This document shows, in pieces, positions 45,758 to 46,667 of a stretch of 64,000 nt of DNA; the first letter of the stretch is position 1; every line of letters starts with the position of its first letter. Source of the stretch: Escherichia coli. GTDB taxonomy: Bacteria > Pseudomonadota > Gammaproteobacteria > Enterobacterales > Enterobacteriaceae. Below the pieces are notes generated by a model, which searched no databases, was not told the DNA's origin, and was given only the letters and a program-made list of their open reading frames with translations. Both the position numbers and the translations under genes were made by a program. The stretch is taken from the NCBI RefSeq assembly GCF_003019035.1, contig NZ_CP027447.1; one strand, 5' to 3'.

Positions 45758-46667
45758 TATAAAGATACATGCTCATCCGGATCATTTCAACACCCAATCC
45801 CTGTGACTATTTGTGGGATGTGGAATTTCCGCAACGGGGAAGTCTGAAATTGTTAGCAGCCATTGGCGACGCTCCCATAAACGCCTGGATGAGTGATTGA
45901 TGATGGTTTCGCTGAGAGTATGGATTTTTCGAGAATGGAGGCTATCTCCACTTTACTGGCCGATGATTTATCGCAGTTTGATTGATTACCTGACAGCGTA
46001 TATTCCTCTCCCACGGATATAATAATTACTTACAAAAAAGGGAGAGGATGCATATTTTAAATATCACTGAAGTGAACAGTTTATTGCCGTTATTAATAGA
46101 AATGGAGAAATAAATAGGCGTATTCTACAATTGCGACAAAAACAACGATATTAATCAGTTTATGACTGATTTGCTGTACTTTATTCTCTTTCATTGGTAC
46201 TTCCTCGCTTTAAAAAAGAGTGCACTTCGTAAGTGCCCTTATATAAATAACGAGTTTGGTCAACCAATTTTTTGACATGTATCACAAATTTGAATAGATG
46301 TATTACATCGGCTATCTTTTATTGCCCCAACGTCATTGATATATGTCGCCTGAAGTCAGTTCCGGGAATGAGTCTGATCTCAAGATTGGCCCAGCCCTGG
46401 CGTTGATTGGCGCTGAGGAGCATATCGCATCTCATCGTAATGTCGTATCTCCTGGGGTGTTATACAAGATATCGTTGTAGGTAACCAGGGAGAGGAATTG
46501 AGTTCTATTAAACCGTCAACTATGCCGGATACATACTGGATTACACTGCAGGCACGCCTTACGAGAGAACGTGCCGCAGTGACGGGTTAATTATCTGAAA
46601 GAATTTGTGAGGCTGTATCGGTTACTCATTGGTTTGATAGTTTTACTCTCGGGAGAGTAATAGATAT

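Follow-up and report, generated by a model that had tools for sequence, protein, structure and literature searches.

The interval analysed here spans positions 45806-46667 of a 64-kb stretch of Escherichia coli DNA (the window) and lies between ykgM and an OYE-family flavin oxidoreductase gene. On the left it begins at 45806, the final base of a spurious ORF of 79 aa that runs antisense to ykgM on the plus strand, and its right edge, 46667, is the base preceding the stop codon of the OYE-family gene. The RefSeq annotation beneath the locus match is the same in all E. coli records inspected, comprising ykgM, ykgR, and the flavin oxidoreductase or a short remnant thereof. The annotated gaps are 364 bp between ykgM and ykgR (45729-46092) and 473 bp between ykgR and the OYE-family gene (46195-46667). 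Along the window coordinates, the locus contains:

45465-45728, minus strand: ykgM, type B ribosomal protein L31 (ORF; annotated by RefSeq in the identical strain SCU-301 and in K-12)
45740-45757: Zur box, a perfect 18-bp palindrome, GTTATGTTATAACATAAC, between the -10 hexamer and the ykgM start and outside the interval
45762-45790, minus strand: sigma-70 promoter of ykgMO, TTGAAA-17-TATCTT (promoter scan)
45806-46000: variable spacer upstream of the ykgMO promoter, differing among seven E. coli by SNPs and by indels of 7, 12+1 and 4 bp
46004-46048, minus strand: stem-loop 3' of ykgR, CCUCUCCC...GGGAGAGG (-19.4 kcal/mol, z -4.1)
46093-46194, minus strand: ykgR, small membrane protein YkgR, 33 aa, MKENKVQQISHKLINIVVFVAIVEYAYLFLHFY (ORF and NCBIfam NF041474)
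46200-46206, minus strand: Shine-Dalgarno sequence GAGGAAG, 5 nt ahead of the ykgR ATG (read from the sequence)
46212-46236, minus strand: weak terminator-like hairpin GCACUU-ACG-AAGUGC, then ACUC and U6, directly upstream of the ykgR Shine-Dalgarno sequence
46237-46310, minus strand: highly conserved 74-bp block upstream of ykgR, invariant in seven E. coli
46311-46380, minus strand: moderately conserved outer edge of the ykgR module (68.6% identity to Escherichia sp. E1V33)
about 46381-46667, minus strand: 3' flank of the OYE cassette (71.7% identity to E1V33, 60.5% with gaps)
46544-46581, minus strand: GC-rich stem-loop about 90 nt past the OYE stop codon (-21.7 kcal/mol, z -3.85)
46668-47810, minus strand: intact OYE-family NADH:flavin oxidoreductase gene, 380 aa (Pfam PF00724, 261.8 bits)

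ORFs around the interval were listed down to 20 aa, and the search for frames of at least 60 aa was recomputed over the whole window. The first-pass annotation had described a stretch of about 860 bp with no ORF of at least 60 aa, and this is borne out by the six-frame listing (ATG, GTG or TTG to stop): 45807-46667 contains none, the longest ORF there being 53 aa. At 861 bp it is the longest such stretch in the window, ahead of a runner-up of 660 bp. The missing long ORF is statistically unremarkable, since 1,242 of 3,000 mononucleotide shuffles of the same sequence (41%) likewise lacked one, and the interval is notable only for how large a gap it forms between long genes. The 33 codons of ykgR went unseen because the ORF threshold was 60 aa. 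The annotation was also right that this neighbourhood in K-12 holds small or degraded genes: the order in MG1655 is ykgO, ykgM, ykgR (b4671; 33 aa), ykgP, then eaeH, and ykgP is a 90-bp pseudogene matching the 3' end of the OYE-family gene, all of it that K-12 keeps. The unannotated small protein that it envisaged turns out instead to be YkgR, which is both annotated and experimentally studied.

Comparisons were made among seven diverse E. coli, UPEC 536 among them, and with other Escherichia lineages, namely Escherichia sp. E1V33 (contig L013), the Logan contig L010, and the metagenome contigs L041 and L042. The search that retrieved the two metagenome contigs used a 44-nt pattern from 46251-46294, and the contigs served solely for sequence outside that stretch; their identity within it is circular, because the pattern that fetched both came from there.

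YkgR matches the NCBIfam equivalog NF041474 at 78.1 bits against a cut-off of 40, with residues 1-33 on model positions 1-33 of 33, and it corresponds to RefSeq WP_000662258.1, identical in all eight intact E. coli records inspected, including BW25113. Pfam PF28062 ('YkgR') is recorded for the YkgR relatives P0006 and P0009. The family is tiny, with 9 representatives among 1.84 billion cluster representatives, all of them Escherichia-like and the majority truncated or chimeric sequences from E. coli. P0009 itself (contig L011), YkgR-like at 66% identity, was not counted as a true variant, its assembly being without long ORFs over 5 kb and apparently indel-ridden. The ykgR ORF is unbroken in five Escherichia lineages, with changes that are mostly synonymous or conservative; relative to E1V33, its coding sequence (CDS) carries 6 synonymous and 3 non-synonymous changes. 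The Shine-Dalgarno core GAGGAA is invariant across the five lineages, and the seventh base differs in E1V33 and L010. To judge from its sequence, ykgR is an intact ORF of about 33 codons with a Shine-Dalgarno sequence, under purifying selection.

In K-12, YkgR has been characterized as a small membrane protein of 33 aa that forms cross-links with SRP, its recognition being post-translational (PMC7549839), as a class I substrate of RseP, an intramembrane protease, both in vivo and in vitro (PMC10470546), and as stationary-phase induced (PMC10502375). Published work on the K-12 protein describes post-translational insertion by SRP through SecYEG or YidC, and a passage of PMC7558204, citing Fontaine, places the N-terminus in the cytoplasm and the C-terminus in the periplasm. 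Production of YkgR and its insertion in the inner membrane are thus reported for the identical K-12 protein (PMC7549839, PMC10470546, and the passage in PMC7558204). No cellular function, partner or regulator of YkgR was found in the literature, and in a search for its transcript start or 3' end, ykgR was listed neither in the Term-seq tables of PMC7815308 nor in the supplement of PMC6131387.

Some E. coli carry altered or additional forms of the gene. In O157:H7 (ATCC 43888 and Xuzhou21), ykgR is frameshifted by a 1-nt deletion in its T5 run, and that lineage therefore does without YkgR. About 850 extra matches in E. coli genomes represent a second, truncated ykgR copy, consisting of the 3' two-thirds and part of the 3' UTR at 91.5% identity. 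In E. coli UTME-3 this copy (L005 3001-3117) is found near proA and tRNA-Thr, within an island with LysR, SDR and small hypothetical genes. A few matches (13-14) lie on plasmid-labelled records.

Of 5,426 complete E. coli genomes, 5,089 have a match to a 1-kb query spanning the interval, in most cases at 95-99% identity, and 5,015 hold at least 80% of the region. The ykgR-containing core is carried by about 5,050 of the 5,426. Conservation is concentrated in this core (46001-46310): 4,296 of 5,075 E. coli records match it at 99% identity or better, a level reached over the full 1 kb by 127 of 5,094. The core is AT-rich (about 31% GC) and contains the stem-loop 3' of ykgR, the ykgR CDS, its Shine-Dalgarno sequence, the weak hairpin with its T6 run, and the 74-bp upstream block. 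Contigs assigned to a Collinsella sp. MAG (L012) and to Terrisporobacter petrolearius (L039) also carry the E. coli locus, at 95-98% identity, and most likely reflect E. coli contamination of those assemblies. As an account of the whole interval by intact annotated small genes, ykgR succeeds in part: it is intact and annotated, but together with its conserved flanks it covers about 310 of the 862 bp.

The limits of the conserved region are visible in lineages where the surrounding genes differ. Homology to L010 and L041, which have no OYE-family gene and have other upstream neighbours, ends at about 46375-46380, and homology to E1V33 ends at about 46001, just past the stem-loop 3' of ykgR, where a putative integrase gene comes next. 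With edges seen in lineages that have different neighbours, ykgR and its flanks therefore behave as a bounded module. The next ORF in E1V33, of 333 aa (L013 7292-8293), occupies the place where E. coli has ykgM; by eye, we take it to be a tyrosine-recombinase (integrase). Because this integrase-like ORF follows the stem-loop, the edge of the module near 46001 is also a point of insertion. L010 was considered as a possible new genomic context and rejected, since it represents this locus from a different Escherichia lineage, in which NmrA-like and BhsA-like genes replace the OYE-family and hydrolase genes; ykgR there adjoins a YdgH/BhsA-like gene.

Within the module, identity to E1V33 is 83.7% in the 3' region of ykgR, 91.2% in the CDS, 88.1% in the hairpin and ribosome-binding-site (RBS) segment, and 94.6% in the 74-bp block (46237-46310). 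The block is thus better conserved than either the ykgR CDS or the other non-coding sequence (69-72%). Several short motifs were recognized in it:

46238-46243, minus strand: TATAAG hexamer
46258-46263, minus strand: TTGACC hexamer
46256-46267: palindrome TTGGT-TG-ACCAA
46271-46286: CRP-like TGTGA-N6-TCAAA with one mismatch, its half-sites kept and its spacer varying across lineages
46297-46309: palindrome GATGTAATACATC, not strictly kept in L041 or L042

The two hexamers are separated by only 14 bp and make poor promoter hexamers. CRP-like matches show no excess over chance in the window (3 against an expected 2.3), and the one in the block would sit at about -45 to -48 relative to candidate -10 hexamers, a non-canonical position (the canonical centre being -41.5 or -61.5). 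A sigma-E-like motif outside the block, GGAACTG-N17-TCAAT at about 46324-46352, was rejected as it is not conserved in E1V33 or L010. From its position and conservation, we infer that 46237-46310 may serve as the ykgR promoter/operator.

The hairpin between the block and the ykgR Shine-Dalgarno sequence is the sole terminator-like site that a terminator scan found in 45300-47000. It is weak (-7.1 kcal/mol, z -1.4), is followed by a U6 run, and with this run ends 17 nt ahead of the ykgR start codon. Across the five lineages its pairs show one compensatory A-U to G-C change, two changes to wobble pairs, and one pair broken in L041, structural evidence that appears equivocal. The 105 nt upstream of the ykgR RBS fold no better than shuffled sequences (z -0.77). 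Hairpin and U6 run would either halt upstream transcripts just before the ykgR RBS or form the 5'-terminal stem-loop of the ykgR mRNA. A transcription start about 7 nt past TATAAG would fall inside the hairpin, so that hairpin and U6 would stop only transcripts arriving from upstream; were the start to lie further upstream, the hairpin would be part of the leader.

The same sequence could be read as an RNA element in its own right: approximately 46212-46310 (minus strand) would then yield either a separate small RNA ending at the terminator or a leader that attenuates ykgR through premature termination. The higher conservation of the block than of the coding sequence speaks for this, as do its ending in the region's only terminator-like hairpin with U6, the single compensatory pair in the stem, and a distance to the start codon so short that no promoter fits in between. 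We consider it unlikely, however. Rfam 15 covariance models gave no match at E up to 1 on either strand of 44000-48500, the 105-nt stretch has the folding of a shuffled sequence, the hairpin at -7 kcal/mol is weak and is weakened further in L041, and the Term-seq tables cited above list no 3' end at ykgR. Moreover, the uniform conservation at the DNA level is equally compatible with overlapping protein-binding sites. The unannotated small RNA suggested at first pass accordingly finds no support in Rfam or in folding. It is conceivable, though doubtful, that the block and the hairpin with U6 together constitute an uncharacterised regulatory device gating a small membrane protein (an attenuator, a short RNA, or a dense operator serving some unknown regulator) that travels with ykgR as a module while neighbouring genes swap.

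The invariant block is also the only place where, besides ykgR, ORFs of at least 20 aa remain open in each of the seven E. coli and encode practically the same protein throughout. By comparison, a 25-aa ORF at 46407-46484 is likewise intact in all seven and exists in five different protein variants. A second unannotated small protein could be sought in the block, for instance in a 22-codon uORF (46210-46278, minus strand) or a 37-codon antisense ORF (46162-46275), both intact in all seven aligned E. coli. The uORF even covers the hairpin, as leader peptides do, and ends at the U-run just ahead of the ykgR Shine-Dalgarno sequence. Both frames, however, are intact in E. coli only because they sit inside the invariant block. 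In each of the four other Escherichia lineages ATC or ACC stands in place of the uORF's ATG, L010 has frame-breaking indels in the uORF, the antisense ORF is shortened in E1V33, and in an overlapping 34-codon frame all five nucleotide changes relative to E1V33 alter the amino acid. On this cross-lineage comparison none of these three frames was accepted as coding, and a second small protein is extremely unlikely. The promoter/operator reading of the block remains the one we prefer.

The OYE-family gene, ykgR and ykgMO are arranged in tandem, all on the minus strand, and the first two are each followed by a strong stem-loop. None of 200 shuffles folds as well as the stem-loop at 46004-46048, whose stem E1V33 and L041 keep, an A-to-G change there producing a U-G pair; it probably acts as a 3'-end structure or an insulator separating ykgR from ykgMO. 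The stem-loop at 46544-46581 also exists in E1V33, where a compensatory change turns U-A into C-G, and is a probable 3'-end structure of the OYE mRNA. Neither is a canonical intrinsic terminator, because neither has a U-tail. The two structures would define or protect the 3' ends of the two upstream transcripts, OYE and ykgR, and may limit read-through into the Zur-repressed ykgMO. As with the block upstream of ykgR, these are roles that we infer from sequence and layout.

On the ykgMO side, the -35 hexamer ends 16 bp left of the interval, and the same ykgMO hexamers have been reported in the ykgM-ykgR spacer, with an H-NS flag (PMC3946193). The Zur box GTTATGTTATAACATAAC is unique in the window (0.01 expected by chance), and its two halves, GTTATGTTA*TAACATAAC at 45740-45757, match every position of the published 18-bp Zur motif RxxxYRxxR*YxxYRxxxY, for which the L31p operator is the tightest Zur site (PMC4219657). 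Zur represses ykgMO several hundred-fold (PMC4219657). The box is invariant in six of the seven aligned E. coli, UPEC 536 having one substitution, and it is perfect in the divergent metagenome locus L041. The spacer upstream of the promoter (45806-46000) shares about 75% identity with L041, which has insertions of 13 and 68 bp there, and no conserved element was found within it on comparison of the seven E. coli and L041. In a published reporter study, ykgMO background was 68% lower when the whole upstream intergenic region was included (PMC10410751). On that ground, 45806-46000 may contribute silencing or insulation to ykgMO.

Other variation has been recorded on this side of ykgR. In O157:H7 (ATCC 43888 and Xuzhou21), the IS66-family element ISEc8 lies in the ykgM-ykgR spacer at about 45892 (L004 ~640-3000). 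A T-to-C change at BW25113 position 308,687 is among the suppressors of ydgH-mutant detergent sensitivity (PMC11705850). It maps to 45928, in a T5 run (45925-45929) of the poorly conserved spacer, some 200 bp ahead of ykgM, and no feature accounting for it was found at the site. Further along, ykgL (plus strand, between ecpR and ykgO; window 44700-45300, L001 3417-3591) is annotated as frameshifted in SCU-301 and B2 strains and is intact in K-12.

The 3' flank of the OYE cassette (about 46381-46667) is found only where the OYE-family gene or its ykgP remnant exists. Single-base indels occur among E. coli at about 46361 and about 46504, and apart from the stem-loop at 46544-46581 the flank looks neutral. 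In Citrobacter sp. Cu233 the OYE-family gene is 82% identical and the downstream DNA is not similar. The gene itself, named 'NADH-dependent flavin oxidoreductase' by RefSeq, has relatives at 96-98% in Escherichia and 82% in that one Citrobacter; otherwise the closest found are in Bacillales and Paraburkholderia, at about 53-57%. These distant relatives suggest that it was acquired horizontally. K-12-like strains have deleted it except for the last 90 bp.

Decayed coding sequence was another of the first-pass proposals, and the interval might in this case be mostly the remnant of a formerly longer gene. Plus-strand ORFs in three frames do chain over 46272-46590, and K-12 has a gene remnant, ykgP, next door. 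Such a pseudogene is nevertheless very unlikely. The interval's other ORFs have no Pfam or NCBIfam matches, the small ORFs are disrupted by 1-bp indels in other E. coli, and divergence from E1V33 is neutral-like with many indels. When all the other ORF translations were concatenated and searched against 5.8 billion proteins, only three matches were returned (P0010-P0012; 46162-46660, plus strand), all of them DNA of this same locus. These are 164-165 aa long, with TGA read as Trp, on contigs of <2 kb and with no Pfam domain; such spacer 'proteins' are gene-calling artefacts on short contigs. In public collections, one cluster of 164-165-aa spacer 'proteins' has 81 members.

Together, the interval is with high confidence the E. 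coli spacer from ykgM to the OYE-family gene (or ykgP), made up of poorly conserved DNA upstream of ykgMO, the ykgR transcription unit and the OYE 3' flank. Its gene identity, anatomy and conservation pattern are established in the present analysis. Positions 46001 to about 46380 would form a self-contained ykgR transcription unit encoding a 33-aa single-pass inner-membrane protein. A regulatory region, as first proposed, is in part a fitting description, covering the DNA upstream of the ykgMO promoter and the conserved ykgR control region. The locus is already known: annotated chromosome carrying ykgR with a conserved control region, the remainder being poorly conserved spacer. It illustrates how a 60-aa ORF cut-off conceals genuine annotated small-protein genes, the remaining DNA here being ordinary spacer. 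Its importance beyond housekeeping is small, and it offers a useful lead to researchers of small membrane proteins: the sharply bounded conserved block and the tandem of OYE-family gene, ykgR and Zur-controlled ykgMO are concrete targets for promoter and terminator mapping.

Three known systems bear comparison. The left flank corresponds to the Zur-repressed ykgMO (L31p/L36p) region of E. coli, with the same TTGAAA-17-TATCTT promoter and the same 18-bp Zur palindrome; here, however, promoter and Zur box (45740-45790) fall outside the interval, and only poorly conserved upstream DNA falls inside. The centre corresponds to ykgR (b4671) of K-12, with the same 33-aa protein on the same strand and in the same place between ykgM and the OYE/ykgP locus. 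The 310 bp around ykgR differ from K-12 at two positions only, 46000 and 46086, whereas upstream of ykgR the present strain retains the full OYE-family gene and K-12 only the ykgP stub. Finally, YkgR resembles the YohP, AzuC and YshB class of stress- or stationary-phase-induced small proteins with one transmembrane segment, in size and in having a single hydrophobic helix. Although their sequences are unrelated, SRP-dependent post-translational insertion and RseP cleavage have been reported for YkgR alongside members of this class.
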